64,000 nt of DNA, taken from an uncultured Lachnospiraceae bacterium. Lineage in GTDB: Bacteria > Bacillota > Clostridia > Oscillospirales > CAG-272. The notes beneath the pieces were generated by a model. That model was not told the origin of the DNA. It saw only the letters and a program-made list of their open reading frames with translations, and did not search any database. Positions 19,758 to 37,335 of this stretch are shown piece by piece. The position numbers and the translations under genes were made by a program. The stretch spans positions 1,344 through 65,343 of the forward strand of contig CAZLRV010000010.1 of assembly GCA_964562175.1 (NCBI GenBank), in the 5' to 3' direction. Each line of letters opens with the position of its first letter. Positions within the stretch are counted from its first letter, which is position 1.

Positions 19758-19787
19758 GTATAACATATAAGAAAGAAGGAATGATTT

Positions 19788-20264: not shown

Positions 20265-20281
20265 GTAAGGATACCGAGATC

Positions 20282-21769
20282 ATGAGTGAACAAATAGAAA
20301 ACAACGAACAAGAACTGAGCGAGGTAGTGGCTATACGTCACGCAAAGCTTGACGCACTTAAAGAAAGCGGAAAAGACCCATTCGTTATAACAAAATACGA
20401 CGTTACCGCAAAATGCAAGCAGATAAAGGAAGAATTTGAGACTCTCGAAAATCAGACAGTAAGAATTGCCGGCAGAATGATGTCACGTCGTGACATGGGA
20501 AAGGCAAACTTTATAGATATTGCCGATTCCACCGGCATGGTTCAGGCGTATATAAAGATCGACGATATAGGACAAGAGCTTTTTGATGATTATAAAAAGT
20601 GGGATATCGGCGATATAATCGGTCTTGAGGGCTTCGTATTCAAAACACGTAGAGGCGAGATATCGGTGCATGCAAAGAATTTAGTGCTTCTTTCCAAGTC
20701 ACTGCTTCCCTTGCCCGAAAAGTGGCACGGTCTTAAGGACACGGACACACGTTACCGTCAGAGATATGTCGATCTGATAGTCAATGCCGAGGTTCGCAAT
20801 ACCTTTGTTTGCAGAAGCAAAATAATAGCCGAAATGAGGAATTACTTAAACGGAGAGGGCTTCTTGGAGGTTGAAACTCCCCTGCTTCACAATCAAGCGG
20901 GCGGTGCGGCTGCTCGTCCCTTCGTCACACACCACAATTCTCTCGATATAGATATGTATCTGCGTATAGCGCTTGAGCTTCATTTGAAGAGATTGATAGT
21001 CGGAGGCTTCGACAAGGTCTACGAAATAGGCAGAGTATTCCGTAACGAGGGCATGGACGCACGCCACAACCCCGAATTTACATTGATGGAGCTTTATCAA
21101 GCGTATACCGACTTTGAGGGAATGATGGATCTGAGTGAGAATCTTATAAGACATCTTGCAAAGACCGTCGTAGGCTCAACGCAGATAAAATTCGGAGAAT
21201 ATGATATAGACCTTGAAAAGCCGTTTGAAAGACTTTCCATGCTTGATGCCGTAAAGAAATATTCCGGCGTTGACTTCAATATTATAACCTCGCTTGAGCA
21301 AGCAAGACATGCTGCGAAGAATTTTCATATTGAATTTGAAGAGCGTCATAAGATCGGCGATATACTCAATCTGTTCTTTGAAGAATATGCCGAAAAGAAG
21401 CTTATTCAACCGACGTTTATCACACATCATCCCGTTGAAATATCACCTCTTGCAAAAAGATGCCCCACCTCACCGAATTATACCGAAAGATTTGAGCTTT
21501 TCATCGCAGGCTCGGAGCATGCCAACGCATTTTCGGAGCTTAACGACCCCATCGACCAACGTGCGAGATTTGAAGCCCAAGCGGCGCTCAAAGCACAGGG
21601 CGATGAAGAGGCTTGCGGCGTTGACGAAGATTTCCTCTGCGCCCTCGAATACGGTATGCCCCCCACAGGCGGTATCGGTATCGGCGTAGACCGCCTCGTT
21701 ATGCTCTTGACAAATAATACCTCCATCCGCGATGTTCTTCTCTTCCCGACAATGAAACCCATTGATTGA
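20282..21769 (+). CDS. lysS: lysine--tRNA ligase (class II)
   Basis: OB-fold N-terminus and class II motifs (FRNEGMDARHNPEFTLMELY, GIGIGVDRLVMLL). Confidence 0.95.
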   Translation: MSEQIENNEQELSEVVAIRHAKLDALKESGKDPFVITKYDVTAKCKQIKEEFETLENQTVRIAGRMMSRRDMGKANFIDIADSTGMVQAYIKIDDIGQELFDDYKKWDIGDIIGLEGFVFKTRRGEISVHAKNLVLLSKSLLPLPEKWHGLKDTDTRYRQRYVDLIVNAEVRNTFVCRSKIIAEMRNYLNGEGFLEVETPLLHNQAGGAAARPFVTHHNSLDIDMYLRIALELHLKRLIVGGFDKVYEIGRVFRNEGMDARHNPEFTLMELYQAYTDFEGMMDLSENLIRHLAKTVVGSTQIKFGEYDIDLEKPFERLSMLDAVKKYSGVDFNIITSLEQARHAAKNFHIEFEERHKIGDILNLFFEEYAEKKLIQPTFITHHPVEISPLAKRCPTSPNYTERFELFIAGSEHANAFSELNDPIDQRARFEAQAALKAQGDEEACGVDEDFLCALEYGMPPTGGIGIGVDRLVMLLTNNTSIRDVLLFPTMKPID

Positions 21770-21785
21770 CATATTATTTTTCAAA

Positions 21786-21831
21786 GCCGTAATTTGATAT
21801 CTTAAGATATCAAATTACGGCTTTCTTTTTT
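21786..21831 (+). terminator. lysS Rho-independent terminator
   Basis: Perfect 36-nt palindrome GCCGTAATTTGATATCTTAAGATATCAAATTACGGC followed by TTTCTTTTTT. Confidence 0.85.
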
Positions 21832-21909
21832 AAGCTGCACTTTAGGATACGAGCCATGGTATAAAAGTCATGGTTTTTTGTCGCTTTAATTGTTAATAAT
21901 GTTTTTACA

Positions 21910-21931
21910 ATATATATATATATATATATAT
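21910..21931. repeat. (AT)11 microsatellite
   Basis: Uninterrupted AT dinucleotide run read directly from the sequence. Confidence 0.95.
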
Positions 21932-21935
21932 GATG

Positions 21936-21944
21936 TGATATAAT
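21936..21944 (+). promoter_or_regulatory. extended -10 element TGaTATAAT (copy upstream of the island operon)
   Basis: Perfect TATAAT with an upstream TG, immediately after the (AT)n tract. An identical element lies at 37250-37258. Confidence 0.45.
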
Positions 21945-22299
21945 CACATATATAGGAATCAACGACAAGATAAATTCGAAAACATTCGATGCTCTCACGG
22001 GGTCAAAAGAACGTCAATCATACTCAAGCAGAAAGCTTCGGGGTTTCTTTAATGAAAAGTCAAAAATATTATAGAATATTTTGTCGAAACACATCGAGCT
22101 TCCGTTCAAACGACGGTGTACCATAATAGAGTTTGATAATACATTCAGAAACGAAACAGCTTCTTGTTTCAAATACATAGTATGGAATCCGTTTATTCAG
22201 AACTATACCTAAGCCGGCGTCGAAATTGTCTGCCGTAGCAGCATAATCTGCGGAGATCATCAATGTGAATATCATAAAATATTGAAGGAGGCTAAAAGG

Positions 22300-25152
22300 A
22301 TGATCAAAGGAAATAAAACGATAATTGACGATTTTACGCAGTATCTCTCGGAAAAAGTATCTCCTTCTCAGCTCTCGGGGTTATACTTCTGTTTTTCTGA
22401 AATCGAGAATTTCTGTTTAAAAGTCAAAGTATTACATAAACCTCTATTTGAAACGACAGATTTTGAGACGATCAAAAAAGTCCGTCAAACAATAGAACAG
22501 AACAAGATTTTCAGAGTTACGCATAAGCGTCAGTATAATAAAATTCTGATTGCTTGCAGGCAATATTATCTTTATATCAAAGAAGGTCATTTTCCTCAGG
22601 GAGAGAAACAATTCAAAGAGGAATGTAAGGATCGTTCGAAAAATATTGAAGCAGCATCGCAAAAAAACGCTGTCGGTAATGCTTCCGTTGAGACACAAAT
22701 TGTACGAACAAATCAAGACGAGAGGCTTTTGCAGAAATATCCGATCGTTTACAAGCAAGTATACAATGCACTTATAAATGCCGGTTGTTCATTATCAATT
22801 GAAATTATCTGCAATAAGATCGGGCGTATTGCTCGCTCTGCGGTGCTTGAAGAGATATTGGATAGTGTAAGTTGGGCAAAGTGGGTTGAGAACGAGTATT
22901 CTTTTTCAACTGAAATTGAGGAGCATCACATTGTCGCAAACGAGGTCAATGAGAAATCAATAGTAAACGAAGCAAAAACCGCTGTTACCTACGTAATTGA
23001 TTTCAACAGTTCCTTTGATCTTACTTACTCCAAGCCTATATCATTCACCTATTTTGGAGCAAAAAAAGAATTCGGTAACACATGGGTCGATCTTTATATT
23101 GCTTTTTTCGAGGCAATTCACGAGGATCATCATCATTTGTTGAAGCCCGGTATGTCATTCTCAAAAACAGGCACACGAGTTGAACTTGCGGAAAATACAA
23201 ATTACGATCTCATGATCGATCCAAAGCATATTCCCGGAACGAATCTAATGCTGGAAACCAATGTTAGTGCAAAAGATGTTGCTTCCAAAATCAAATACGT
23301 TCTTGAGCTGTGCGGCATTGACTTTGAAAATATTATAATCGGTTACATTAAAAAGAATGACGTTTCCCCCTCAAAGGAAGAGTGTCCCACTAATCCATCA
23401 AGAAGAGGAGCAAGCGGCTATAGCGCTGATTTTTACAATTTTCTATCAAAGAGATTAGGAATGGCAGAGGCAACTTGCCGTAGCTACGTTTCGGCTATCA
23501 ATAACTGTGAATCATTTGCAAAAGAGCATCACTTTGTGTCTTGGCAACTATACGGAGTACAACAAACCGCCGCAGAAGAAACTATTAAGCTCCTAATGGC
23601 AGATGAAGCTTTTCAAAAGTATACTGCGAGCCAACATAACAGATTTCGCACAGCACTTCAAAAATATCTGTTGTTTGTTGGAAGCGAAGCTGTAATTCAC
23701 AGCACTGCACCGGAACCTTATAGAACCGAAGTTGCCGCACCATATAGAAATGAAGAATATGAGATGATGCTCAGCCGTTTTTTTCAAAAAGGATTTCGAA
23801 TGGAATCTCCGCTTGAGATACGAAAATTCAGGCGATACTACTCGTCAACTTACGAAAAAGAGCTTCTCGATTCCGACGATGAAATAAGCTGCAATATTAG
23901 GAAGCTTGCAATTGAATACGACGGAAAAGCTTTCTTGCCCGTTGCAATGCTCAATGATGAAGTTAAAGCTCAACTGTATGCCTACATTGATTCCGCATTT
24001 GCCGAAGGAAAAAAAGCAATTTACTATCAGGCATTATACGCAGAGTTTGCAGAAACTTTTCTTGACCACCATATTCATAATGCAGATATGCTTAAAGCGT
24101 ATTTATCTGCCACAGCTAATGGGAAATTCTATGTTCAAAAGAATTTTATATCAAAGGAAGAAAATGTAACGATAGATCCGCTCTCGGAAATTCGCAAATG
24201 CCTCATTGAGTATGGTAGACCCGTAGAATACGAAGAATTATTTGAAGCGTTACCGCACATACCGCAGAAGAAAATCAAGTATCTATTAGCAAGCAATGGA
24301 GAGTTTATAAATAACGGACAAGGTACTTACTTTCATGAAAAAACAGTACGGCTTTCGGATGATGAGCTTGAAAGCATTGCCGAAATTATCAGCTGTACAA
24401 TAGAAGACAAGGACTACATGGGCGGCAATGAGCTCTATGATGCAATTAAGGCGAAGTACGGTTACATTATAGAAGATAATAAGCTGCTATCCATATATGG
24501 CTTCAGAGACGCTCTGAGCGCAAAACTCGGCGATAGATTTTCTTTTAAGGGAAATATTATCAGCCGCTACGGCAACGAGTTATCTATGGCTGATGTATTT
24601 GCAAAATACGCCCAAACGCACGACAGCTTCACATTGTCTGAACTTCAGGAACTTGCTTCTAATCTGGCAACAGTAATTTACTTTGATGCCGTATACGAAA
24701 ACAGCCTGAGAGTCAGCAAAGAGCAGTTTGTATCTAAAGAAATGGCGCAGTTTGCAATCTCCGAGACCGATGATGTGCTTGATCGCATTTGTCTTGGAAA
24801 ATATATTCCGATTTGTGAAGTTCAAAACTTCGGAATTTTCCCATATGGAGGATTTACTTGGAATAGTTATTTGCTGGAACACTATGTTGCAAGTTATAGC
24901 CATAAATACAAGCTTCTTCACAGAGGCTTCAGCGAAACGGAATGTGCGGGCGCAATAGTACGACGTTCCGCAAATATCAATAGCTTTGACGATTTAATTG
25001 TCGATATCTTAGTCAACGACCCGATCGAATTGAACCAATCCTCGGTACTTCAGTACTTGAGTGACAAAGGATATCTTGTGCGAAGAAGATATTCCGAAAT
25101 TGAATCGCTTATGATCAAAGCGAAGGCACAGAAACAGAGGAGGGGCGACTAA
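22300..25152 (+). CDS. large uncharacterised protein, first gene of the BREX-like operon
   Basis: 950-aa ORF (ATG at 22300 after GGAGG; the track start is TTG at 22282). No P-loop or other catalytic motif seen. It has an internal duplication of an ~84-aa module. Its stop lies 2 nt before brxP. Confidence 0.7.
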   Translation: MIKGNKTIIDDFTQYLSEKVSPSQLSGLYFCFSEIENFCLKVKVLHKPLFETTDFETIKKVRQTIEQNKIFRVTHKRQYNKILIACRQYYLYIKEGHFPQGEKQFKEECKDRSKNIEAASQKNAVGNASVETQIVRTNQDERLLQKYPIVYKQVYNALINAGCSLSIEIICNKIGRIARSAVLEEILDSVSWAKWVENEYSFSTEIEEHHIVANEVNEKSIVNEAKTAVTYVIDFNSSFDLTYSKPISFTYFGAKKEFGNTWVDLYIAFFEAIHEDHHHLLKPGMSFSKTGTRVELAENTNYDLMIDPKHIPGTNLMLETNVSAKDVASKIKYVLELCGIDFENIIIGYIKKNDVSPSKEECPTNPSRRGASGYSADFYNFLSKRLGMAEATCRSYVSAINNCESFAKEHHFVSWQLYGVQQTAAEETIKLLMADEAFQKYTASQHNRFRTALQKYLLFVGSEAVIHSTAPEPYRTEVAAPYRNEEYEMMLSRFFQKGFRMESPLEIRKFRRYYSSTYEKELLDSDDEISCNIRKLAIEYDGKAFLPVAMLNDEVKAQLYAYIDSAFAEGKKAIYYQALYAEFAETFLDHHIHNADMLKAYLSATANGKFYVQKNFISKEENVTIDPLSEIRKCLIEYGRPVEYEELFEALPHIPQKKIKYLLASNGEFINNGQGTYFHEKTVRLSDDELESIAEIISCTIEDKDYMGGNELYDAIKAKYGYIIEDNKLLSIYGFRDALSAKLGDRFSFKGNIISRYGNELSMADVFAKYAQTHDSFTLSELQELASNLATVIYFDAVYENSLRVSKEQFVSKEMAQFAISETDDVLDRICLGKYIPICEVQNFGIFPYGGFTWNSYLLEHYVASYSHKYKLLHRGFSETECAGAIVRRSANINSFDDLIVDILVNDPIELNQSSVLQYLSDKGYLVRRRYSEIESLMIKAKAQKQRRGD

Positions 25153-25154
25153 TT

Positions 25155-27515
25155 ATGTATTCATATAATTGGGACGCAGAAACGGGAGGTCTTCTGCTGA
25201 ATACTTCCCCACTGACATTCAGCAAAGAACCTCGTCCGGTATATTATAAAGAACTTGACATTCTCGGGTTTGATAAGTATTGGAATTACGCAAAAGATGA
25301 CACATATCCGTATATGTGGGCAGAAGCAAACAATTACTTTTACAGGGGGCGGCTTGTTGCAAAGACAAAAGGAGGCAGTCTGTATACTGCACCTGAAATC
25401 ATTATTCTTGAGGATGCGGAACCCGACGGGGAGCCGCTCCGCTTCGTTGACATACCGGCAATGGTGAGCAAGAACCGTGATTTGATCGAGAAGCTCGCTG
25501 CTGATACCATCAAAAAAATCTATAACATTTATATAGATTATGCAGGGAGGGTAGATGTTTTCTATGTTGCATTCAGCGGCGGTAAAGATAGTATAGTAGC
25601 ACTTGATCTTGTGCAACGAGCATTGCCGCACAACAGCTTCAAGGTGTTGTTTGGGGATACTGAAATGGAATTTCCCGACACATACGATATTGTTGACAAA
25701 ATCCGCAATTATTGTATTCAAGAAGATATCGAATTTTTAAGATCAAAGTGCGATTTCCCACCTGAGTACACATGGCACAAATTCGGTCCTCCTGCCCAAA
25801 CAATTCGCTGGTGCTGTAGTGTACATAAAACTGCGCCTCAAGTTATACTTCTTCGAGAACACATGAATAATCCTCACTTTCGAGGAATGGCCTTTACAGG
25901 AGTTCGGGGCGATGAAAGCGTGTCAAGAAGTGAGTACGAAGGAGTCAGTCAAGGAGAGAAAATCCGAGGACAATATAGTTGTCATCCGATTTTGGAGTGG
26001 AACTCGGCAGAATTGTTTGCCTATATTTATGATAGAAATCTTCTGATAAATGAAGCATATAAAAAAGGAAACAGTCGAGCGGGTTGTTTAGTTTGTCCGT
26101 TAGCAGCATCCAAAAATATGTATTTTAAAGAGCAAGCGTACAACACCGGGTGCAACGGGCATAGGTCAACGGCAACATTTAACGATATCATCTTGGAAAC
26201 CACTTCGAAAGAACTCTCAGCTCCGGAAGCTATAAAAGAATATATGGATATCGGAGGCTGGAAAGCAAGGCGAAGCGGCAAGGAACTTTCTTTTGCCAAA
26301 AGTTATTCAACTGAGGTCTTTGAAAAAGGTATTCTCACAATTCATTTAACACAAAAAAATACTGATTGGAAACAGTGGATAAAAACAATCGGTGATATCT
26401 CATTTTTAGAAAATGGAGATGTCGATGTACTTTATCGTGGAAAATTATATCACATTGAAATCGAAGAAAATGATAAGGAACTCACAGCAGTTGTAAACAT
26501 CGGTTCAAATACACAAAAGGATATTTATTTTGCATCGGAACTAAAGACTATCTTTAGGAAAACTGCTTATTGCATCGGTTGTAGAGTTTGTGAGGCAAAT
26601 TGTCCAAATGGATTTATAACCATGAAAAACGGGTGCGTTACTATAGATAATCGATGTGTTAAGTGCAAGAAATGTCATGATATATTTCATGGTTGCTTAG
26701 TTGCGAACTCGTTACGATTGCCGAAAGGAGATAATAAAATGGGAAGCATAGATAGATATGGAAATATGGGAATTGAACTCAATTGGGTGAAAGAGTATTT
26801 CAAAACAAAAGATGAATTTTGGAATTCCCCACACAGTTTAGGAACGAACAAGGTTAAATACCTTAAAAGTTTTCTTAATGATAGTGAGATCACCGTGAAA
26901 GGTAAGCTTTCCGATTTCGGCAGAGTCATTGATTACATCGGTATAGAAAATACAGATGCATGGGCATTGATGCTCTGCAATCTTGCCTATACATCGGAAT
27001 TTAATTGGTGGGTAAAGAATATCAAATTCTCGATTATATACACTCCAGACACAATTTATGCGATGCTCGATGATGCAATGAGCAAAAATTCAAAATCGCA
27101 CATTGTTTCCGCATATAAGAATATCTTGATTTCAAATCCACATTTTGGTAACGAAATAGGGCTTGGAACTTGCGAATACGAAATTAAAAACGAAAAGCGT
27201 TTATGGAACAGTGTGATTAGGCTCGAGTGGAAAACGCCTAATCCTCTCGTTATCCTCTACAGTCTTTTTAAATTTGCTGAGGCTTGTGGAAATTATCACC
27301 AGTTCACGCTCTCTCGGTTGCTGAATCACGATATTGAAAGTGACGGCATCAGCCCTACCGAGATCTTCGGACTTGATAGGAAGCAGATGGAAAAGCTTCT
27401 TAGCGGTCTTTCCATTAACTACCCTGATTTCATCAACGCAAGCTTTACGCTTGATCTTGATAACATTACGCTAAATTGCGAAAAGACATCGCAAGATGTT
27501 TTGAAGCTGTTCTAA
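25155..27515 (+). CDS. brxP: PAPS-reductase/PP-loop ATP pyrophosphatase family protein with ferredoxin-type Fe-S motif (BrxP-like, DndC/SspD-related)
   Basis: PP-loop VAFSGGKDSIVALDL, then RWCCSVHKTAP, GVRGDES, and CIGCRVCEANCPNG...CVKCKKC. The long C-terminal extension may be DUF4007-like (inference). Confidence 0.8.
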   Translation: MYSYNWDAETGGLLLNTSPLTFSKEPRPVYYKELDILGFDKYWNYAKDDTYPYMWAEANNYFYRGRLVAKTKGGSLYTAPEIIILEDAEPDGEPLRFVDIPAMVSKNRDLIEKLAADTIKKIYNIYIDYAGRVDVFYVAFSGGKDSIVALDLVQRALPHNSFKVLFGDTEMEFPDTYDIVDKIRNYCIQEDIEFLRSKCDFPPEYTWHKFGPPAQTIRWCCSVHKTAPQVILLREHMNNPHFRGMAFTGVRGDESVSRSEYEGVSQGEKIRGQYSCHPILEWNSAELFAYIYDRNLLINEAYKKGNSRAGCLVCPLAASKNMYFKEQAYNTGCNGHRSTATFNDIILETTSKELSAPEAIKEYMDIGGWKARRSGKELSFAKSYSTEVFEKGILTIHLTQKNTDWKQWIKTIGDISFLENGDVDVLYRGKLYHIEIEENDKELTAVVNIGSNTQKDIYFASELKTIFRKTAYCIGCRVCEANCPNGFITMKNGCVTIDNRCVKCKKCHDIFHGCLVANSLRLPKGDNKMGSIDRYGNMGIELNWVKEYFKTKDEFWNSPHSLGTNKVKYLKSFLNDSEITVKGKLSDFGRVIDYIGIENTDAWALMLCNLAYTSEFNWWVKNIKFSIIYTPDTIYAMLDDAMSKNSKSHIVSAYKNILISNPHFGNEIGLGTCEYEIKNEKRLWNSVIRLEWKTPNPLVILYSLFKFAEACGNYHQFTLSRLLNHDIESDGISPTEIFGLDRKQMEKLLSGLSINYPDFINASFTLDLDNITLNCEKTSQDVLKLF

Positions 27516-27528
27516 GGAGAAATATGCA

Positions 27529-30500
27529 ATGCCAATGTTAGAGAAATATCGAGATTATTTTGATATCGATCCTGATTATTTTCCTGCCGTAAACGAAGCA
27601 GTTATTACAAAGAATCCGAATGTGTGGAAGAAGTTTTTCCCGCACGAAACCTTTATTAAGCTCATCAAGAACACTGTCAGTGTACTTGAACGCAGACAAA
27701 AACAATGTTTGTGGGTCGAGGGTGCTTATGGTACCGGTAAATCTCATGCGGTTCACACGCTGAAAAAGCTTTTGGATTCGGACGATGCGGACACCCGCGA
27801 GTATTTTAAAAAATATGATCTTGATAATGACCTGCTCAATCGGTTTCAAGCAGTCAAATCCGGCGCTCGCATTCTTACCGTTCACCGCTATGGTTCCGCT
27901 ACCATCCATGGTGATCACAATCTCGTATTCGCAGTTCAGGAAAGCATAGAAAAAGCTCTTATCGATGCCGGCATTGAGAATAAGGGTGGCAACGCTCTGA
28001 AAAATGCCGCAATCGCTTGGCTTTCCGATAAGGATAACAAAAGCTACTTCAACGGACTTATCACCGGCACATATTCAGATATATTCGGCGGAGATAATGT
28101 TGATATGGTTATCGAAAAGCTTCGCACATTTTCCGGCGATGCATTGGCAAAAGCTATGGATAACATCTTCAGAGTCGCTGACGAGCGTCAAATAAAGGCA
28201 TTGTCTTTGAGTGTTACCGACCTCTGTAATTGGATCCGTGAGGTAATAAAAGCCAATAGCCTGAAGGCTATTGTGTTTATCTGGGATGAATTCACCGAGT
28301 ACTTTTATAACAATACTCGTAATCTGACAGGCTTCCAAGAACTGTGCGAAATCAGTGAAACAGATCCCTTCTATTTTGTATTGGTGACACATGTTACGCA
28401 GGGTTTATTCCATGAACACGATCGTGATTTTATTAAGTTGAACGGACGCTTCGTCAGCCCGCATAGCTTAATTAGTCTGCCTGAAAACATTGCATTTCAG
28501 CTCATGGGTGCGGCAATGGAGAAAAACCAAGATCCTGCCGTAGCAGAAGATTGGGAGATCGCCTTGGGAGATTTAACCGACAGGACTCAAAATTCTCGAA
28601 AGCAGGTTAAATCAGTTGCCCGTATTACGGACAAAGAAATGACGGATATTCTCCCGATACACCCCTATGCGGCATTGCTTTTGAAGCATATATCATCTGC
28701 ATTTGATTCCAATCAACGCAGCATGTTCGATTTCATAAAAAATGATCGTGACGACGAGATCAAGGGCTTTCGGTGGTTTATTGACACTTTCGGTCCGGAG
28801 GACGACAATCCTCTGCTTTCCGTCGATATGCTATGGGAATTCTTCTACGACAAGGGCAAAGAATATCTTGCGCATGATATCCGTTCGATTCTTGACTACT
28901 ATAACCGAACCGGTAATCAAAGGTTGGATTCCGACCAAAAGCGCGTGTTAAAGACCGTTCTGCTGTTGCAAGCTATTTCTCAATATGCGGGTGATTCGGT
29001 AGAACTGTTTATTCCCAACGAAAAGAATCTCAATAATGCGTTTGAGGGCACGGATATGGAGGGTTCAGCAGCTCGTTGTGCAGATCAGCTTGTCCGTGAT
29101 AAGATTCTGTTTTCCAAATCTTTGGGCGGTGGCAAATTCCAGTACGCCGCTTATAACAATGAGGGAGAAATTGATGTTACGCCTTTTGAGGAGCAGATCG
29201 ATAAAAAGAGTACATCTGCTTTGATCATTGAAGAACTTGCAGACAGAACCAGAATCGTTGACGCAATTACTTTGGGCGGGGCGTTGAAGCTTCGTTACGA
29301 GCTACGTTATGTATCGTCATCTGATTTTGATTCTGCGATCAAGCAGCTTCGTAATACCGAAGATAAATATGACAACAAAATCGTTGCGGTCGTTTGCTTT
29401 GCAAAGGATGATGCCGAGAGTGTTGTTATTGGCAAAAAGATCAGAGATGCGCTTGCCGATGGTTCCTATCACATGATCTTTATCGATGCATCCCGAACAC
29501 CACTCGGAGCTGATGGATATAGTACATACCGTCATGATATGGCTTTGTCCATGTCTCAGCAAGGCAAAGACGGAGCGCTGGCAACACAGTATGCAAATAA
29601 CGCCAAAGATTCCCTGAAGAAATGGAAAAACAGAATTACAGCCGGCGAATTTATTATTCACACTGCGGATAAACGTGACGGAGAGCGTGCTACCTCTCTC
29701 GATGCGCTGTACACAATTCTTGCCGAAGTGAATAAGAAAAAGTTTCCCGGATGCCTTGAAGGTGCGTACAATGTTATTGCAAATATGTATACGCCGAATA
29801 ATCTTAAGCAGGGTGTTGAGTGTGCATTTAACGAAAAAACCGCAGGTACTTTTCTTTCCGGAAGTCCCGCAACAAAGCTTGAAACCGCACTGGAAGGTGC
29901 ATGGAAGGTAGCAGAATACTGGAAGATAAAGCCACACCTTTTGATTTCCAAAATCAAGCTTTGTGTTGATGAAATTGTAACCGATGGGTTTAACAATGGC
30001 GGTCGTGTATCTATTAAGAAGATCTACGATGTACTGAAAACCGCTCCTTACGGATTTATGCCCTGCAATCTCACTGCATTTATTCTGGGATTTGTTCTCA
30101 AGGAGTATGCGACCGGTACGTACAGTTGGAGCGACGGCTTGACAAATGATGTTCTGAATGTGGTCAAGCTGAAGGAGATGATCGATGAGGTCATCCGACT
30201 TGAGATCACGCCTAATCCTCGCTACAAAGACAAATACATCGTTGCTATGACTCAGGAAGAAAAAGCTTTTAATGAAATTACTTCGACCGCATTCGGGATC
30301 CCTCTCAACATATGTACCTCCGTACCGAACACAAGAGAACGGATTCGCGGAAAAATGAAGGAATACTCATTCCCGATCTGGACAATCAAATATATCTTGG
30401 ATTCGGTCGTAACAAAAACCGATAAAGCCGTATTAAGTGAAATTATAGACCTTTTCTGCGGAATTGCAAATAGCAATAACATGGGATCATCTAAGACCGA

Positions 30501-31731
30501 CAGCGATATAGCCATGTCGATCGGAAAGCTTTCACTCGACAATATTGATGCGGCATCCGATTTGAAGAATATTCTGACAAAAGAAAATTGCACAAATGGC
30601 ATGATACGATACATTGCGTCTTTTGACAATGGGTCGTTGGTTAATTTGTCTGAGGAGATCGGCGACGGTGGTCAATATATCAATGTATTACGCAAGAAAT
30701 TTGATGCGGATGCCGCGACTTGGGTGTGGAATGTCGAAACCGTGCAGCAGAAGATTTGCGAGGTGATATTAGAATATGCTACTATTGTCGAGAGCAATAA
30801 AGTTATCTCCAAGAACATCTCCTATGATGCAACTATTAGAGAATGGTGTGATAAATGTGGATATATTCGCATTTCTTATGCCGCCGCAAAAAACTATCTG
30901 GATGAGCTTGGTCCTTTCCTGAGCCTTCTGCATAGCATGAAAAAAACCGGAACTTTGCCGGATTCTCAGAAAAAAGCCTTTTTGGAGTTGCTTGAAGCAA
31001 ACGCCGAGTTATTCCGTGACTTTTACAATAATCAAGTCAAAATGTTTAAGCGAGTGTGCGGATATTATTTGGACAAGCTATCCGACGAAGAAATAAAAGA
31101 AGTTTTCAGCACAATTCCCTCCGGCTCCTTTACTTACGAAAAAGCTGACTACCTAAACACCGTTGAAAGTAAAGTGAAGTCCTACAAGGAGGGACGAAAG
31201 AGCACGAAGCTGAAGAAGTTCTGGAAGGATAAGACAGGCACCGATTCGCCGCGTGAATGGTCCGAAAAGCATGAAATGCCGATACTTTGTTTAATTCCCG
31301 ACGATGAAGTAGCAAAAGCAAGAACGGCTTTCGGTGCAGTTAACCGTACAAAGCCTGACGAGGCATCCATAGACAAAGCAAATGAGTATTTTGCTTCCGC
31401 AAAATTCTTCGACTTGCTTGATGATGAAGCAGCACTCGACAGAGCGTTCAGAAACGGTGTCATAAAGAACTACTCGGTTATGCTTACAGACATACCGGCT
31501 GTAAAGGAATATCTTAATTCTCACATTGAAGCGGAGCCTTTTGATTGGTTCGGTCTTCCGGAAATCGAAAAGAAATTACACATGATGGCAGAAGCCAACT
31601 ACAATCAAGGCGGTTGCGAGCGTGCATTGGCAAAAATCGATGAAATGGATATTGCCGATGTTAAGAAATATCTAAAGGATTTGATCAAGGATAATATGAT
31701 CGTCGGCATGGAGATCATCAAAGAAAACTAA
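27529..31731 (+). CDS. brxC: BREX P-loop ATPase BrxC/PglY-like
   Basis: 1400 aa. Walker A EGAYGTGKSH near residue 65 and Walker B VFIWDEF. Positioned between brxP and pglZ. Confidence 0.75.
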   Translation: MPMLEKYRDYFDIDPDYFPAVNEAVITKNPNVWKKFFPHETFIKLIKNTVSVLERRQKQCLWVEGAYGTGKSHAVHTLKKLLDSDDADTREYFKKYDLDNDLLNRFQAVKSGARILTVHRYGSATIHGDHNLVFAVQESIEKALIDAGIENKGGNALKNAAIAWLSDKDNKSYFNGLITGTYSDIFGGDNVDMVIEKLRTFSGDALAKAMDNIFRVADERQIKALSLSVTDLCNWIREVIKANSLKAIVFIWDEFTEYFYNNTRNLTGFQELCEISETDPFYFVLVTHVTQGLFHEHDRDFIKLNGRFVSPHSLISLPENIAFQLMGAAMEKNQDPAVAEDWEIALGDLTDRTQNSRKQVKSVARITDKEMTDILPIHPYAALLLKHISSAFDSNQRSMFDFIKNDRDDEIKGFRWFIDTFGPEDDNPLLSVDMLWEFFYDKGKEYLAHDIRSILDYYNRTGNQRLDSDQKRVLKTVLLLQAISQYAGDSVELFIPNEKNLNNAFEGTDMEGSAARCADQLVRDKILFSKSLGGGKFQYAAYNNEGEIDVTPFEEQIDKKSTSALIIEELADRTRIVDAITLGGALKLRYELRYVSSSDFDSAIKQLRNTEDKYDNKIVAVVCFAKDDAESVVIGKKIRDALADGSYHMIFIDASRTPLGADGYSTYRHDMALSMSQQGKDGALATQYANNAKDSLKKWKNRITAGEFIIHTADKRDGERATSLDALYTILAEVNKKKFPGCLEGAYNVIANMYTPNNLKQGVECAFNEKTAGTFLSGSPATKLETALEGAWKVAEYWKIKPHLLISKIKLCVDEIVTDGFNNGGRVSIKKIYDVLKTAPYGFMPCNLTAFILGFVLKEYATGTYSWSDGLTNDVLNVVKLKEMIDEVIRLEITPNPRYKDKYIVAMTQEEKAFNEITSTAFGIPLNICTSVPNTRERIRGKMKEYSFPIWTIKYILDSVVTKTDKAVLSEIIDLFCGIANSNNMGSSKTDSDIAMSIGKLSLDNIDAASDLKNILTKENCTNGMIRYIASFDNGSLVNLSEEIGDGGQYINVLRKKFDADAATWVWNVETVQQKICEVILEYATIVESNKVISKNISYDATIREWCDKCGYIRISYAAAKNYLDELGPFLSLLHSMKKTGTLPDSQKKAFLELLEANAELFRDFYNNQVKMFKRVCGYYLDKLSDEEIKEVFSTIPSGSFTYEKADYLNTVESKVKSYKEGRKSTKLKKFWKDKTGTDSPREWSEKHEMPILCLIPDDEVAKARTAFGAVNRTKPDEASIDKANEYFASAKFFDLLDDEAALDRAFRNGVIKNYSVMLTDIPAVKEYLNSHIEAEPFDWFGLPEIEKKLHMMAEANYNQGGCERALAKIDEMDIADVKKYLKDLIKDNMIVGMEIIKEN

Positions 31732-31742
31732 GGAGGTACGAT

Positions 31743-34073
31743 ATGACCACCGATGAAGTTATAAAAAAGATAGATCGCTATCTGAGGAAGGATGATGTCG
31801 GATCTATTATAGTTGATGTACAAAACAAGACCGATATGGAGATAATTGTTACTCATTATCAATTACCTCAATACACCTTCATATATGCATCAGATCCTGA
31901 AATCTGTAATTATGACGAGTTCCCGACAATTGATAGGCTTCTTGAAAGAATTGCTAATGAGACTGACAGCTTTTTCATTAAAGAGCTTTCTACCTTTTAT
32001 ATGCTGAAAGGTGAAAAAGAGCTGTCTCGGGAATTAAAGGAGCTTCTGTCTATGAATATCGCCGGTCATGTTGTATTTCTTACTTATCAATGCAAAAATT
32101 ATCTTCAAGCACTTATCAAAAGCGATAAACGTCTGCAGGGACGAGTTTGTATTATTGACGGACAACAGTGTCTACGTCCAAAGCTTGTATTTACGATTGG
32201 CGGAGTTCGATCTTTGGGCAACGGCAAGACGGTCAAGGGGTTGCATAGCCTTGCCGGTGCCATTGAATGCGAGTCGGCAGACACGATCTATGTTGAAACA
32301 AAAAAGCTCAAGGCAAATTTTCCTTTATCACTATACACTGTTTTTGAACGACACAGTCCTTATGATATCTTGTGTGATTTAGACGAATTAACTTCCGTTC
32401 TTGACCGTAATGCCGGTTCGGAGGAAGAATGGGAGTACGCTCTTGCTGAGTTTCAGACATTTCACTCATGGAGTGATTTTCTAACTGACAAGTTTGGAAG
32501 CGTTCAAAGCCTTGGCAGTGCCATTTCAAACTATAAATTAAATTCTAACGATAAAACTTGGTGTTGGCTTTACTTTATTGGCTTGAAATTATTTGGCGCG
32601 ACTAATGACCGATACATGAACAACGCAGTATCTAAGGCTTTGTCGCCTTCTGATTTTGTACGTGGCATATATCGAGGCATTTTAGAATTAGAGATAAACG
32701 ACGATTCGTTTGAGACAGTATACGAAAGAAGAAAGGCATTATTGAATGCACTGGGTAATCCGATAAACGAGACCATCGATTTTTGCAAAATTGTACTCAG
32801 CAAAGGAAAGAATGCAATATGTTATCTTACTGACAATTCCATTCAGGAGAAGGAACTCGTATTTGAACTGCTTGAAAAATATGGAACGGATTATACAAAA
32901 GCAGAAATCCTCTCAATATTGAGGAAAGTATATCCGGCATTGTATTCATATTTACAGCCGTTTAGATTTAAAAATGAGCTTTTGGATGGTTATTTTCAGG
33001 ACTATAAGTATCAGAAGGTGATTAACAAAATCTTTCCGGAGTTTATGGCACTCGTTGAACAACAAGCAGTTACCAGGGACTACAATGTACTGCTTCCGCC
33101 TCGAAGTGCGTTGGTGGAAAATATTGACACAGCAAATACACAAACATATTTTACCGATGCAATGGGTGTGGAATTTCTTGGATTTATCATGGATAAATGC
33201 AAAGAACTGCAGCTAATGGCTAAGGTATCTGTGTGTAGAAGTGAATTACCGTCGATTACAAGCCGCAATAAGGATTTTTGGGAGGAGCTTTCCAACGCAA
33301 GTTATCCGATCATCACTGTTGATAAGCTTGATAAGATCAAACATCACGGAGAAGATGGATTTGACTACAGTCGCAAAGACAGAAAACTTCCGATCCATTT
33401 GATAAGAGAGCTTGAAATAATTGACGATCTTCTCAAAAAAATTAAGTCAGACCTTGCATCGGGTAAGTATGCTAAAGGGATACTCATCTCAGATCATGGA
33501 GCGAGCAGGCTCGCAGTGATCCACGAAACCGAAAATCTTTGGGAGATGGGCTCCGCCGGAAAACATTCCGGAAGATGTTGTCCCAAAAGCGAGATCGACA
33601 CAAGACCGAATAGTGCTGCCGATGCGGATGATTTCTGGGCATTGGCAAACTATGATCGTTTTAAAGGCAGTAGGAAAGCAAACGTTGAGGTTCACGGTGG
33701 TGCGACCTTAGAGGAAGTCGTAGTTCCGATCATTGAAATCACATACTTGAACAATTCCATTGAGGTTAAACTAATGCCGCTTGATGCTCCGGCAAGTTTC
33801 GTTGGAGCGCCGAAAATCAGCGTAAGTTTCCGAAAAAAGGCAGCCATTAAGATTTTCGCTACACGTAAATTGATGGATGTGTGCATTGAGATCGATGGTC
33901 ATACATATGATGCCGAGCCTATAGACGATAATTTCTATGTAGTAAAGGAAATGCCGGAGATCCGCAAAGCAAAGCAATATGCTGTTGATGTATACGCTTG
34001 CGGAAACAAGATTGCCGATTCTTTACCGCTGGTCGTTGAGAAAGAAAGCGGAAGCGAAAACAGCATACTCTAA
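31743..34073 (+). CDS. pglZ: PglZ domain (alkaline-phosphatase superfamily) protein
   Basis: Hallmarks of the PglZ domain: YFTDAMGVEFLG ... ILISDHGASRL ... HGGATLEEVVVPII. AGGAGG RBS. Confidence 0.85.
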   Translation: MTTDEVIKKIDRYLRKDDVGSIIVDVQNKTDMEIIVTHYQLPQYTFIYASDPEICNYDEFPTIDRLLERIANETDSFFIKELSTFYMLKGEKELSRELKELLSMNIAGHVVFLTYQCKNYLQALIKSDKRLQGRVCIIDGQQCLRPKLVFTIGGVRSLGNGKTVKGLHSLAGAIECESADTIYVETKKLKANFPLSLYTVFERHSPYDILCDLDELTSVLDRNAGSEEEWEYALAEFQTFHSWSDFLTDKFGSVQSLGSAISNYKLNSNDKTWCWLYFIGLKLFGATNDRYMNNAVSKALSPSDFVRGIYRGILELEINDDSFETVYERRKALLNALGNPINETIDFCKIVLSKGKNAICYLTDNSIQEKELVFELLEKYGTDYTKAEILSILRKVYPALYSYLQPFRFKNELLDGYFQDYKYQKVINKIFPEFMALVEQQAVTRDYNVLLPPRSALVENIDTANTQTYFTDAMGVEFLGFIMDKCKELQLMAKVSVCRSELPSITSRNKDFWEELSNASYPIITVDKLDKIKHHGEDGFDYSRKDRKLPIHLIRELEIIDDLLKKIKSDLASGKYAKGILISDHGASRLAVIHETENLWEMGSAGKHSGRCCPKSEIDTRPNSAADADDFWALANYDRFKGSRKANVEVHGGATLEEVVVPIIEITYLNNSIEVKLMPLDAPASFVGAPKISVSFRKKAAIKIFATRKLMDVCIEIDGHTYDAEPIDDNFYVVKEMPEIRKAKQYAVDVYACGNKIADSLPLVVEKESGSENSIL

Positions 34074-34085
34074 GGAGGAATAGCC

Positions 34086-35537
34086 GTGATTGAAAAATTG
34101 AGAAATTGTTTTGATGATATGGTTGTCTACAAAGACTTAAAGAAAAGTAATTTTTTCTCGGCTTTAGGACTGCCTTCGTTTTTGAGAGATTGGTTGATAA
34201 AGAAATTTTCCGATGATGATGGCAATCTTGACGTTGAGAAGCTTACCGACTTTATCCGTACATATCTTCCGAATAAGGAAGAATGGATAAGTATTAAAGA
34301 CAGGATCATCAACGACAACGAGAGGGTGAAGCTTCTCACAAGAATATCTGTTGATATTAGCATTAAAACGGGTGAAGTCGCATTTTCACTTCCCAATTTT
34401 GGGCTGACAAACAAGGAAACAATGATTGACAATTCCACCTGGGAGCAATATAGAGGTGAGCTTGCAAGCGGTCAAGAAATATGGGGAGTTATTGAGTTGG
34501 GTTATCGTCCGCCCGATGATACGGTGAAGCCTAAGATCCCGGGCAAGATCAAGCTTATCGGATTTACCAATTTTTGCCCATACACAATTGATTTAGACTA
34601 CTATAAAGATGTCCGAAATGAATTTACCACTTCCGAGTGGATCGATGTGCTTCTCGGTGCAATTGATTACAATGCATCGGGGTATGAAAACGAAGAACAA
34701 AAGCTTGCTATGCTGACGAGAATTCTGCCCTTTGCCGAGAAACGCCTTAACCTAATAGAGCTTGCACCCAAAGGAACGGGAAAATCCTATGTTTTCGGTC
34801 ATGTTAGTAAATACGGACTCCTCACCGACGGAGGAAAAGTAACACGTGCAAAAATGTTCTATGATGTTGCGCGAAAAACTCCCGGCTTTATTTCCGGGAA
34901 CGATTTTGTTGCCATTGACGAGGTGAAACTTGTTCAATTTGGCGATGTCAATGAGATGCGCTCCATTATGCAAGGATATATGGAGTACGGTCAATTCAAC
35001 ATTGGAGGATATGAAGGAAAATCTGATGCAGGTGTAATATTCCTCGGCAATATTGCTCAGGATAATATGGATGAGTACCGGAATATGTTCTCGGAGCTTC
35101 CTCCCCTATTTCAGGAAAGTGCATTGGTAGATAGAATACACGGCTTTATAAAAGGCTGGGATATTCCCAGGATGAACGATGATCTCAAGCTCTCCGGCTG
35201 GGCGTTAAATTCGGAATATTTTTGCACGATCCTGCATGAGCTACGTAGCGATATTTCTTACCGAACTATTGTTGATAGGGTGATTGAAGTCCCCGACAAG
35301 GCAGATACTCGTGATACCGAGGCGATAAAAAGAATCGCCACTGGTTATTTAAAGCTTTTGTTTCCCAATGTGAGAAGCGTGTACGATATAAAACCCAAAA
35401 CATTCCAACAATATTGCCTTCGTCCGGCGGTGCGTATGAGAAAGATCATTAAAAGGCAGCTTGGTATTTTGGACAAAGAATTCAAAGGTAAGGATGTTCC
35501 ATCTTTCGCGTTAAAGGAGATAACGGATGAAGAGTAA
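34086..35537 (+). CDS. brxL: BrxL-like AAA+ ATPase lacking the C-terminal Lon-protease domain
   Basis: Collinear with the BrxL N-terminal and ATPase regions (EWIDVLLGAIDY, ELAPKGTGKSYVF, VAIDEV, DRIHGFIKGWDIPRM), but it ends at 483 aa. GTG start after AGGAGG. Confidence 0.8.
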   Translation: MIEKLRNCFDDMVVYKDLKKSNFFSALGLPSFLRDWLIKKFSDDDGNLDVEKLTDFIRTYLPNKEEWISIKDRIINDNERVKLLTRISVDISIKTGEVAFSLPNFGLTNKETMIDNSTWEQYRGELASGQEIWGVIELGYRPPDDTVKPKIPGKIKLIGFTNFCPYTIDLDYYKDVRNEFTTSEWIDVLLGAIDYNASGYENEEQKLAMLTRILPFAEKRLNLIELAPKGTGKSYVFGHVSKYGLLTDGGKVTRAKMFYDVARKTPGFISGNDFVAIDEVKLVQFGDVNEMRSIMQGYMEYGQFNIGGYEGKSDAGVIFLGNIAQDNMDEYRNMFSELPPLFQESALVDRIHGFIKGWDIPRMNDDLKLSGWALNSEYFCTILHELRSDISYRTIVDRVIEVPDKADTRDTEAIKRIATGYLKLLFPNVRSVYDIKPKTFQQYCLRPAVRMRKIIKRQLGILDKEFKGKDVPSFALKEITDEE

Positions 35538-35724
35538 CTGCGTCATATGCGGAAAAGATCGCCTTAGTAAAGACACCATCGGCATTAACAGGAAATTGTT
35601 AGGAGAAGATATAGATAACTTTTACTGCCTTGACTGTCTTGCAGAGTATCTCGGTTGTACAGTCGATGAACTCCTTGATAAGATCGAGGAGTTCAAAGAA
35701 GAGGGCTGTAAGCTGTTTGCCTGA
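35527..35724 (+). CDS. 65-aa zinc-ribbon protein (CxxC ... CxxC)
   Basis: CVICGKD ... CLDCLAEY. The ATG overlaps the brxL stop by 11 nt, with an AAGGAG RBS inside brxL. Confidence 0.6.
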   Translation: MKSNCVICGKDRLSKDTIGINRKLLGEDIDNFYCLDCLAEYLGCTVDELLDKIEEFKEEGCKLFA

Positions 35725-35738
35725 TCATAAAGAGAAAA

Positions 35739-36863
35739 ATGAAAAGTATTGTTTATGCCGATAATGCGGCAACCACAAAATTGGATATTGATGCATTTGA
35801 GGCGATGAGGCCATACTTATTGGAAGAATACGGCAATGCTTCTCAGCCATACTCGTTTGCCCGAACAGCAAAAAATGCCTTGAAAGAATCCAGAGAAATC
35901 ATTGCGCAATGCATTGGAGCCGCTCCGGAAGAAATATACTTTACTTCAGGCGGAACGGAAAGCGATAATTGGGCAATCAAGGGTAGTGCTTTTTCCGACC
36001 CCTCGAAACGTGCGACGATCACATCAACAATTGAGCATCATGCAATTCTGAATGCCTGTGCAGACATTGAAAGATTAGGATATCCTGTAAGCTATTTGCC
36101 GGTAGATTCTTATGGTAAAGTTTCGCCTCAAGCACTTTCCGAATGGATTACCGACAATACAAGATTGGTATCGATTATGTTTGCAAACAATGAAATAGGA
36201 ACGATCCAAGAAATTCAAAAATTATGTAGCATTACACATTCGATGGGAGCAATCTTCCATACCGATGCAGTACAAGCCGTAGGTCATACCGATATCGATG
36301 TGAAATCACTTGGGATCGATATGCTGTCCGCATCCGCTCATAAGTTTAACGGTCCTAAAGGCATTGGTTTTCTGTATATACGGAGCGGAACGAAAATCAC
36401 TTCCTATATCAGCGGTGGCAAACAAGAATTTGGCATGAGGGCGGGGACGGAGAATGTAGCATCAATTGTTGGTATGGCGGTTGCTCTTGAGAAGAATCTG
36501 CGGTTTTTGAACGAGAACACGGCTCACATAAAAAAGCTTGAGAAAGATCTAATCGATGGATTACGCATGAAAAAGATTGATTTTGTACGAAATGGCGGTG
36601 ATATTGGAATCCCGGGCAATATAAGCTTATCGTTTGGCGGTTATGAGGGAGAAGCGTTATTGCACCGGCTCGATCTTATGGGAATTTCCGTATCGACCGG
36701 TTCTGCTTGCGACAGTCATAATACTCGGATATCCCATGTCCTTAGGGAAATTGGGCTTAGTAATATATTGGCTAAAGGAACAATTAGAATTTCCCTCGGC
36801 AAATCTAATACCGAGGATGACATAAAAGCGATCTTATCGGCACTCTCAAAAATCGTTACCTAA
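35739..36863 (+). CDS. cysteine desulfurase, class V aminotransferase (NifS/IscS/DndA/SspA-like)
   Basis: PLP lysine motif SASAHKFNGPKGIGFLY and catalytic loop STGSACDS. Size 374 aa. Confidence 0.88.
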   Translation: MKSIVYADNAATTKLDIDAFEAMRPYLLEEYGNASQPYSFARTAKNALKESREIIAQCIGAAPEEIYFTSGGTESDNWAIKGSAFSDPSKRATITSTIEHHAILNACADIERLGYPVSYLPVDSYGKVSPQALSEWITDNTRLVSIMFANNEIGTIQEIQKLCSITHSMGAIFHTDAVQAVGHTDIDVKSLGIDMLSASAHKFNGPKGIGFLYIRSGTKITSYISGGKQEFGMRAGTENVASIVGMAVALEKNLRFLNENTAHIKKLEKDLIDGLRMKKIDFVRNGGDIGIPGNISLSFGGYEGEALLHRLDLMGISVSTGSACDSHNTRISHVLREIGLSNILAKGTIRISLGKSNTEDDIKAILSALSKIVT

Positions 36864-36891: not shown

Positions 36892-37056
36892 ATGACCGTT
36901 TTTACGACCCGTCAAACGAAATACGCAGGTCAACTCAACTTTTACCTGTCTGCGGTAGATGACAATTTGAAAAAGAATGGAGAGGCTCCTTGCATCTGTC
37001 TTTGCTTTGTAAAATGTCTTACGGTAAATTGTTTGTGCTTATATGGAATAGTTTGA
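36892..37056 (+). pseudogene. C-terminal remnant of a YhcG/DUF1016-type PDDEXK nuclease gene
   Basis: Hand translation gives ...KYAGQLNFYLSAVDDNLKKNGEAPCICLCFVK..., matching the conserved G-x-x-NFYLSAVDD...P-x-IG-LLLCK end of this family. Only about 54 codons are present. Confidence 0.5.
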
Positions 37057-37096
37057 ACAGCAATAAAACTCCTTGATTGACATATTATTTTTCAAA

Positions 37097-37142
37097 GTCG
37101 TAATTTGATATCTTAAGATATCGAATTACGGCTTTCTTTTTT
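37097..37142 (+). terminator. terminator copy at the island right end (likely terminates the BREX-like operon)
   Basis: GTCGTAATTTGATATCTTAAGATATCGAATTACGGC plus TTTCTTTTTT. The two substitutions relative to the lysS copy both become G-U pairs. Confidence 0.75.
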
Positions 37143-37214
37143 AAGCTGGACTTTTAGGATATGGGCCATGATTAAAAGTCATGGCTTTTTGTTATTTTCA
37201 ATGTTAATAAAATG

Positions 37215-37246
<32 letters not shown>

Positions 37247-37249
37247 TCG

Positions 37250-37258
37250 TGATATAAT
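37250..37258 (+). promoter_or_regulatory. extended -10 element TGaTATAAT upstream of the DUF4234 gene
   Basis: Perfect TATAAT with TG, about 78 nt upstream of the ATG at 37336. Confidence 0.5.
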
Positions 37259-37335
37259 TGCATACATAAGAATTTACGACAAGATAAATTCGATATTGTT
37301 CGACACATCTTGCCGCAAAAAACAAGGTGAAAAGT

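Follow-up and report, generated by a model that had tools for sequence, protein, structure and literature searches.

What a type 4 bacteriophage exclusion (BREX) gene set might do when it has no methyltransferase and shares an operon with three further genes is the question raised by a locus in contig CAZLRV010000010.1 (assembly GCA_964562175.1) of an uncultured Lachnospiraceae bacterium. The analysed stretch, 64,000 nucleotides in length and referred to below as the window, carries seven genes encoding, in order, a large upstream protein built of multiple winged-helix (WH) domains, BrxP, BrxC/PglY, PglZ, BrxL, a small zinc-ribbon protein and a cysteine desulfurase (cysD). A first-pass annotation of the sequence had read the region as a type-4-BREX-like operon with three new components. 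From sequence comparison we consider it highly probable that the region is a complete and typical type 4 BREX of the common Clostridia/gut form, i.e. a phosphorothioate (PT)-based modification-restriction cassette, carried on an island downstream of lysS. Taken as a whole, it adds a further example of a system already published, and what remains of interest is the family of the upstream multi-WH protein.

The seven open reading frames (ORFs) are co-directional and tightly packed (Table 1), the spacers being, in order, 2, 13, 11 and 12 nt, an 11-nt overlap of the zinc-ribbon ORF start with the brxL stop, and 14 nt. No strong intrinsic terminator was found inside the operon, only short terminator-like sites at chance level, while two strong hairpins lie downstream of cysD (37094-37135 and 37163-37187). 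Because of the tight spacing, the lack of a strong internal terminator and the hairpins after cysD, a single operon is the natural reading; the first-pass annotation, whose coordinates proved exact, had proposed the same. The first gene can be read from a TTG or from an ATG codon. The ATG is the more likely start, because the Shine-Dalgarno sequence GAAGGAGG (22284-22291) directly precedes it, and an identical 950-aa homolog (P0001) is recorded with the equivalent start.

Table 1. Positions of the cassette genes and of associated features in the window
Feature	Position	Strand	Remark
ORF 1, upstream multi-WH gene	22282-25152	+	TTG start, 956 aa; ATG 22300 gives 950 aa
ORF 2, BrxP	25155-27515	+	
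ORF 3, BrxC/PglY	27529-31731	+	
ORF 4, PglZ, type 4 form	31743-34073	+	
ORF 5, BrxL, short type 4 form	34086-35537	+	
ORF 6, 65-aa zinc-ribbon protein	35527-35724	+	
ORF 7, cysteine desulfurase (cysD)	35739-36863	+	
Frameshifted remnants of the N-terminal domain of ORF 1	22126-22281	+	tblastn with N-termini of P0002, P0010 and P0050
Left direct repeat, ~200 bp	21762-21960		intergenic, downstream of lysS
Right direct repeat, ~200 bp	37073-37271		
54-aa YhcG-type PD-(D/E)XK nuclease gene fragment	36892-37056	+	between cysD and the right repeat; Pfam YhcG_C 6.7e-5

The profile matches of the operon proteins have E-values of 1e-90 to 1e-280 and are therefore not due to chance. BrxP matched the PADLOC BrxP model over its full length (residues 1-785; 7e-234) and Pfam PAPS_reduct (PF01507; 4e-27, 95.8 bits against a cutoff of 22.5), as well as PADLOC SspD (3e-14) and, weakly and in its C-terminus, SspB (2e-3). 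Its translation contains the motifs SGGKDS (aa 141-146) and CIGCRVCEANCP. A CC...CxxC set (C220, C221, C311, C314) is invariant in five aligned BrxP sequences, and eight further cysteines common to all five, between C473 and C514, make up a ferredoxin-like region with two CxxCxxC motifs. We take these cysteine sets to fit Fe-S sites of the APS-reductase and ferredoxin types, respectively. Judged by these matches, BrxP is a PP-loop PAPS-reductase-like sulfurtransferase with a C-terminal DUF4007/SspB-like part that is predicted to bind DNA. BrxC, with Walker A (GAYGTGKSH) and Walker B (IWDEF) motifs, matched PADLOC BrxC over its full length (PDLC02485; 8e-280) and SspC (2e-18), which identifies it as a predicted P-loop ATPase homologous to SspC. 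Its score against the NCBIfam type 1 BrxC model (39 bits, cutoff 400) was below the threshold, as expected for another subtype.

PglZ was assigned by NCBIfam NF033445 (BREX_PglZ_4; 9.7e-126, 421 bits against a cutoff of 140) and PADLOC PglZ (1.6e-90). The Pfam domains DUF7864, DUF7863 and DUF7862 matched as well, and PF08665 was under threshold. The motifs ISDHGASRL and HGGATLEEVVVPII (ISDHGAS, HGGATLEE) are those of the alkaline-phosphatase superfamily. BrxL was assigned by TIGR02688 (1.2e-125, 419.7 bits against a cutoff of 329.3), PADLOC PDLC02505 (1.6e-212) and Pfam BrxL_N and BrxL_ATPase, and contains ELAPKGTGKSYVF, VAIDEV and DRIHGFIKGWDIPRM. All the motifs quoted in the first-pass annotation are thus present in the translations, and the ORFs that it had taken for PglZ and BrxL are placed in these families by profile searches. 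It had also stressed that BrxL lacks its protease domain. This is true, the protein consisting of an N-terminal domain and an MCM-like AAA+ ATPase without a Lon domain, but it is not new: the protease-less form is the type 4 norm, because the models TIGR02688 (449 positions) and PDLC02505 (482 positions) are both short and both covered end to end by the BrxL of the window. The supplement of a 2026 survey by the Krishnan lab in Nucleic Acids Research (NAR; PMC12839542) likewise gives type 4 BrxL as HTH-like (helix-turn-helix), OB-fold and MCM.

No methyltransferase family matched any ORF of the island, which is filled by the seven genes, or any flanking ORF, in agreement with the first-pass annotation. 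With brxP, brxC/pglY, pglZ and brxL adjacent and co-directional, and with no pglX, the locus has the gene set by which Goldfarb et al. (2015) defined type 4 BREX; the earlier assignment to this type is borne out by the matches to BrxP, BrxC, PglZ_4 and the short form of BrxL.

How a BREX cassette might mark DNA without a methyltransferase can be answered by analogy. Contrary to the earlier statement that the mechanism of type 4 BREX had not been worked out, PT writing by BrxP, BrxC and a cysteine desulfurase was demonstrated by Yuan et al. (PMC12914056; preprint June 2024, Nature Communications January 2026). In their work, deletion of brxC abolished PT in Bacteroides salyersiae, and transfer of brxP, mcrA and brxC to B. 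thetaiotaomicron, where the host SufS served as the desulfurase, gave the native PT pattern. In a host with a cysteine desulfurase brxP and brxC sufficed for PT dinucleotides, brxZ and brxL were dispensable for PT, and BrxP was described as an SspD-SspB fusion. A 2024 paper on PT machinery (PMC10853773) makes no mention of BREX. The brxPCZL operon of B. salyersiae DSM 18765 resembles that of the window in its core of brxP, brxC, brxZ (pglZ) and brxL, in a BrxP that joins SspD to SspB and a BrxC homologous to SspC, and in its need for a desulfurase. It differs in that mcrA separates brxP from brxC and a gene termed "unknown" (HMPREF1532_02796) follows brxL, and no operon-encoded desulfurase is described for it; the window, for its part, lacks mcrA and encodes a desulfurase of its own, a zinc-finger protein and the upstream multi-WH protein.

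By homology to the brxPC genes of B. salyersiae, we infer that the window cassette writes PT. The cysteine desulfurase would take sulfur from cysteine as a persulfide, and BrxP (PP-loop ATP pyrophosphatase, Fe-S clusters, DUF4007) together with BrxC would build it into the backbone of the DNA at a short target sequence. The restriction arm would consist of PglZ and the MCM-like BrxL, acting on unmarked DNA.

ORF 7 matched PADLOC DndA (2.3e-130) and SspA (2.5e-129) and Pfam Aminotran_5 (1.7e-77); its pyridoxal phosphate lysine lies in a SAHKF motif, and its active-site loop reads STGSAC. By these criteria it is a predicted cysteine desulfurase of the DndA/SspA/NifS type. The 65-aa protein encoded by ORF 6 has a CxxC...CxxC zinc ribbon (C5, C8, C34, C37), a further conserved cysteine (C61) and an HTH-like tail, with weak matches to HTH and repressor profiles; its zinc-ribbon cysteines are at least 90% conserved across the species loci described below. 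Its probable role is that of a regulator or of a small desulfurase adaptor. The two genes had been presented as new in the first-pass annotation. According to the text and supplementary lists of PMC12839542 (NAR 2026), however, an in-operon desulfurase and a small zinc-finger partner are frequent components of type 4 systems, the cysteine desulfurase being present in 255 of 457 type 4 taxa and regarded as a potential sixth core component. ORF 6 fits the "small zinc-finger protein" of that source.

The type 4 systems with desulfurase and zinc finger set out in PMC12839542 match the window in BrxP, BrxC, PglZ, the Lon-less BrxL, the DndA-like desulfurase and the zinc-finger/HTH protein, and in the make-up of BrxP (a PAPS reductase-DUF4007 fusion that also has an alpha+beta domain and a Fer4-like cysteine cluster). 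That source also describes BrxA-like and BrxB-like parts fused into BrxP and PglZ in type 4. Type 1 BREX (brxA-brxB-brxC-pglX-pglZ-brxL) shares with the window the BrxC, PglZ and BrxL core and the logic of self-marking and exclusion; in the window the PT machinery stands in place of the PglX methyltransferase, and BrxL lacks Lon and HKD domains. Each of the four SspABCD modification proteins has a homolog in the window (SspA 2.5e-129, SspD 3e-14, SspC 2e-18, SspB 2e-3). However, BrxP combines SspD and SspB in one chain, restriction would fall to PglZ and BrxL, and no PADLOC match to SspE, SspF, SspG or SspH was obtained in the operon, so that on sequence grounds the cassette is best described as a relative, and not a member, of the SspABCD-SspE/FGH systems. 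A Dnd system was not recognised either: in PADLOC the DndC match was partial (6e-6) and DndB, D, E, F, G and H gave none, TIGR03183 scored 18.5 bits against a cutoff of 290, and of the Dnd proteins a DndA-like one is present in the form of the desulfurase (2.3e-130).

The distribution of the cassette was analysed in a scan of one genome per species. The BrxC homolog search gave only relatives of 83-89% identity, and the BrxP alignment was used as the anchor. The scan returned 80 loci, each of which was searched for all seven proteins, and reached one BrxP clade (N-terminus MYSYxWD / YPYMWAE), to which the following counts apply. The order upstream gene-brxP-brxC-pglZ-brxL-zinc finger-cysD is kept across the 80 loci. 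A homolog of the upstream protein ends within tens of nt upstream of brxP in 77 of 78 assessable loci, the zinc-finger gene follows brxL in 68 of 69, and cysD is adjacent in 63 of 68; the linkage of the three extra genes to the core, part of the earlier description, is thus upheld, and the desulfurase is near-universal in this clade, compared with 56% overall in PMC12839542. In a reverse scan of metagenomes with the conserved motif of the upstream protein (W[NT]x[YF]LLE[HQS]Y), the gene immediately downstream was brxP in 75 of 78 loci, and two others had brxP at a distance of up to ~210 nt. The species loci come from many Clostridia as well as Negativicutes and Bacilli, and include metagenome-assembled genomes labelled Bacteroidales, Spirochaetes, Alphaproteobacteria, Desulfovibrionaceae and Hydrogenedens. 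Cultured carriers of the full cassette are Angelakisella massiliensis Marseille-P3217, Pseudoramibacter alactolyticus DSM 3980, Acetanaerobacterium elongatum CGMCC 1.5012, Clostridium vitabionis and Neglectibacter caecimuris. The flanks of the surveyed cassettes contain lysS, galactose genes, FeoB, phage-type integrases or serine recombinases.

Within this BrxP clade the seven-gene layout is thus the standard one and not a variant. This bears on the view that the locus is a new type-4-like variant, set apart from described systems by its three extra genes and of unknown mechanism. The extra genes are indeed real and co-transcribed, none of them is part of the four-gene PADLOC definition, and the upstream protein has no family model. 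With the PT mechanism published, the desulfurase and zinc finger published as frequent type 4 components, and the layout general in the clade, we regard such a variant as improbable, and the novelty claims of the first-pass annotation have largely been overtaken by the two 2026 papers.

Among the seven proteins, the upstream one alone seems to be undescribed. It gave nothing above threshold in Pfam, NCBIfam, PADLOC and PHROGs, a sequence profile search of the PDB found no solved structure, and the text and supplementary lists of PMC12839542 contain no large multi-WH protein upstream of brxP. It is not the orphan for which it had been taken, since it belongs to a family of at least 2875 clusters at 50% identity (1276 with E <1e-30 in the profile search), almost always preceding brxP, and at least 315 close homologs were found. 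The conserved part of the family is the C-terminal ~470-590 residues. The N-termini vary in length and content, the proteins ranging from 427 to 1859 aa with up to nine repeated matches (411-1799 aa for the ORFs of the 80 species loci), and a weak Phage_int_SAM_1 signal occurs in 15 of 18 members.

An AlphaFold2 (AF2) model of the whole protein (predicted local distance difference test, pLDDT, 66; predicted template modelling score, pTM, 0.30) showed small helical and WH units but was too poor for the C-terminus. The C-terminal module (residues 485-956) was modelled separately with 79 diverse sequences, giving with high confidence about six tandem WH units and a three-helix tail (pLDDT 95, pTM 0.77). 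Foldseek searches with this module returned tandem WH proteins only, namely UFL1 (2.8e-5) and SelB WH1-4 (3.6e-4), then Dcc1 and MukE; among viral models, Foldseek gave nothing informative. These proteins share the WH-string fold of the module but have no detectable sequence relationship to it, their TM-scores are low (0.15-0.3), their domain arrangement differs and their functions are unrelated, so the likeness is one of architecture only. The last WH domain has a loop rich in aromatic residues and proline, in which the invariant residues F755, R810, D830, P854, W860, S873 and G890 (full-length numbering) are concentrated. As modelled, the protein would have no enzymatic activity, its small helical, SAM-like and WH domains forming an array. 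An enzymatic role was rejected, as no catalytic family or fold was found in any library and no PD-(D/E)XK-like pattern was seen by eye in the C-terminus. A relationship to the BrxA/DUF4007 part of BrxP was also rejected (hhalign probability 3%), and so was identity with the "unknown" gene deleted by Yuan et al., which lies downstream of brxL.

Co-variation was measured as Spearman's rho of pairwise identities in 58 non-redundant species loci. The C-terminal module of the upstream protein correlated with BrxC (0.92) and PglZ (0.89), followed by CysD (0.68), BrxL (0.66), BrxP (0.44) and the C-terminal 450 aa of BrxP (0.34); with BrxL as the control, the partial correlations with BrxC and PglZ were 0.86 and 0.80. 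The variable N-terminal part had a rho of 0.73 with BrxC and PglZ, compared with 0.27 (partial 0.05) with the variable half of BrxP. The C-terminal half of BrxP correlated poorly with all other proteins (0.24-0.36), and because of this brxP seems to be exchanged as a module: its C-terminal half appears to have been swapped independently of the rest of the cassette, which is consistent with this half being an exchangeable element that sets the PT target motif. The genes of the cassette evolve as a mosaic: across the 80 species loci (L015-L094), median identity to the window proteins was highest for the zinc finger (73%), BrxL (70%) and BrxC (60%) and lowest for the upstream protein (42%) and PglZ (44%). 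The upstream gene is the fastest-evolving of the cluster, with a mean pairwise identity of 0.39.

The co-variation argues against the upstream protein being a specificity partner of BrxP and for a tie to the BrxC-PglZ core; a specificity shared between its N-terminal part and the variable half of BrxP was rejected, there being no co-variation between the two. This bears on a proposal in which the protein reads the PT mark, like the sulfur-binding domain (SBD) of ScoMcrA, or acts as a DNA-motif subunit that sets the BrxP target. The SBD has a hydrophobic Tyr/Pro pocket for sulfur, and its nearest structural neighbour is an ORC winged-helix protein (PMC6224610); the position of the invariant residues in an aromatic/proline-rich loop is reminiscent of this. 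However, SBD structures are present in the PDB library and were not among the 50 Foldseek matches listed, and no solved structure matched in sequence, so that nothing past a loose motif resemblance speaks for an SBD-like reader. As to specificity, brxP, mcrA and brxC of B. salyersiae alone gave the native PT pattern (PMC12914056). Both forms of the proposal are, in our estimate, improbable.

Alternatively, the upstream gene could be cargo or a regulator of a mobile element, for example a DNA-binding maintenance or anti-silencing protein. Its SAM-like (integrase N-terminal type) and WH domains, its rapid evolution and the presence of related cassettes in integrative mobilisable elements are compatible with such a role. 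Against this, the gene stands 2 nt from brxP here and adjoins it in 77 of 78 loci whatever the flanks, it has been kept in the window although recombinase, relaxase and HTH_26 genes are absent, and its product co-varies with BrxC and PglZ; we consider a cargo role very unlikely. We propose a role on the restriction side of the cassette. Here the C-terminal module would dock on the BrxC-PglZ core, while the hypervariable N-terminal domains would bind nucleic acid or features of the invader, making the protein a sensor or adaptor of restriction that takes no part in PT synthesis. We suggest, tentatively and at somewhat less than even confidence, that in the multi-WH protein the main type 4 BREX clade has a seventh component, so far unrecognised and present almost universally, which acts as a hypervariable sensor/adaptor with BrxC and PglZ on the restriction side.

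If so, the four-gene definition of type 4 BREX would be incomplete for defence, which could account for the fact that the anti-phage activity of type 4 cassettes has not yet been reconstituted. A reconstitution with brxPCZL only omits a gene that accompanies brxP in ~99% of the surveyed loci and co-varies with BrxC and PglZ.

It should be noted that several points weigh against these interpretations. PT writing and phage exclusion by the window cassette are predicted by homology and its expression is presumed, and the mechanism is transferred from B. salyersiae, whose system belongs to a different clade and has a different gene set. The role of the upstream protein is drawn wholly from its modelled fold, its linkage and its co-variation. 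Mirror-tree correlations are inflated by common descent and are no proof of contact, and those found here could reflect swapping of brxP by recombination with the rest inherited together. The upstream protein may already be drawn in the gene-neighbourhood figures of PMC12839542 (Supplementary Data S1). Finally, the first gene of the window has lost an N-terminal domain and the island has no recombinase, so this copy could be partly decayed.

The loss concerns a domain of ~105 aa (RQPSWD..EA..LLE...NGISFQMKSMESAY) with which most homologs of the upstream family begin. Pieces of its second half (IEFDNTFRNE / FQIHSMESVY / KPASKLSAVAA) are spread over three frames upstream of ORF 1, and its first half was not found there by tblastn. 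ORF 1 begins at a Met that is near-invariant in the family, its Shine-Dalgarno sequence being formed by K-E-A codons. Gene callers take this internal Met as the start of some intact homologs too, while annotating others with the same DNA as full-length. Phase variation of the gene was rejected, since the 950- and 1059-aa homologs (with identical BrxC) have identical DNA and differ by the start choice of the gene caller only. With an internal Met that has its own Shine-Dalgarno sequence, intact homologs may make two isoforms.

The frameshifted domain, the nuclease gene fragment behind cysD and the absence of a recombinase, a relaxase and an HTH_26 regulator would all be expected of a decaying, non-functional remnant. 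We nevertheless think it unlikely that the window copy is one: the seven ORFs are open and full length relative to the models, the catalytic motifs are intact, the start of ORF 1 is a conserved internal Met with a strong Shine-Dalgarno sequence that is also called in intact homologs, and an identical cassette is present in an independent sequencing run.

The cassette, very probably a complete type 4 BREX as stated above, occupies an island of ~15 kb between lysS (20282-21769) and a DUF4234 gene, with a GC content of 0.38-0.43 compared with 0.44-0.49 in the flanks. The direct repeats at its ends are imperfect (91% identical) and look like attL/attR sites or a recombination scar. The repeated segment comprises a terminator hairpin, that of lysS in the left copy (21783-21824), plus a second hairpin, a (TA)n microsatellite and an extended -10-like sequence, TGATATAAT, which in the left copy faces the operon and may supply it with a putative promoter. 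The right repeat, with a (TA)n run and the two hairpins found downstream of cysD, forms the right boundary of the island and supplies the operon terminators. No HTH_26 gene, relaxase or remnants of flanking recombinases were detected in the island. The YhcG_C match of the 54-aa nuclease fragment is under the cutoff and covers profile positions 84-116 of 157 only; the fragment is probably a remnant of another gene once present on the island.

Related cassettes occur in other settings. The BrxC sequence P0162 stands for 1319 member sequences, always in the same seven-gene cassette, which has serine recombinases on one flank, a MobA/MobL relaxase on the other and a small HTH_26 gene upstream. In human-gut metagenome loci (L007-L014, e.g. 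L009:1-4400 and 19485-24206), the seven genes are located inside an integrative mobilisable element, flanked by two to three large serine recombinases at one end and, at the other, by a MobA/MobL relaxase, DUF3847 and another serine recombinase; a 69-aa HTH_26 gene immediately precedes the first cassette gene. Copies at L002/L003:2660-9953 and L004:6743-9629 stand, like that of L001, in defence-island or mobile contexts unlike that of the window; the neighbours are in one case several XRE-type HTH genes, a tyrosine integrase and a PemK toxin, and in another N6_Mtase, a RhuM gene and an rve transposase. In L001, a GmrSD gene lies upstream of the cassette and brxC is split into two overlapping ORFs of 1057 and 355 aa (L001:15553-19753), probably by a frameshift or an assembly error.

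Two ORFs of the window lie outside the island repeats, at least ~23 kb from the island, both on the minus strand. The first (59564-60937, 457 aa) is distantly similar to large serine recombinases (21% identity, 5e-11). The second (62302-63987, 561 aa), at the window edge, matched PADLOC MADS mad3 (1e-34) and mad8 (3e-13).

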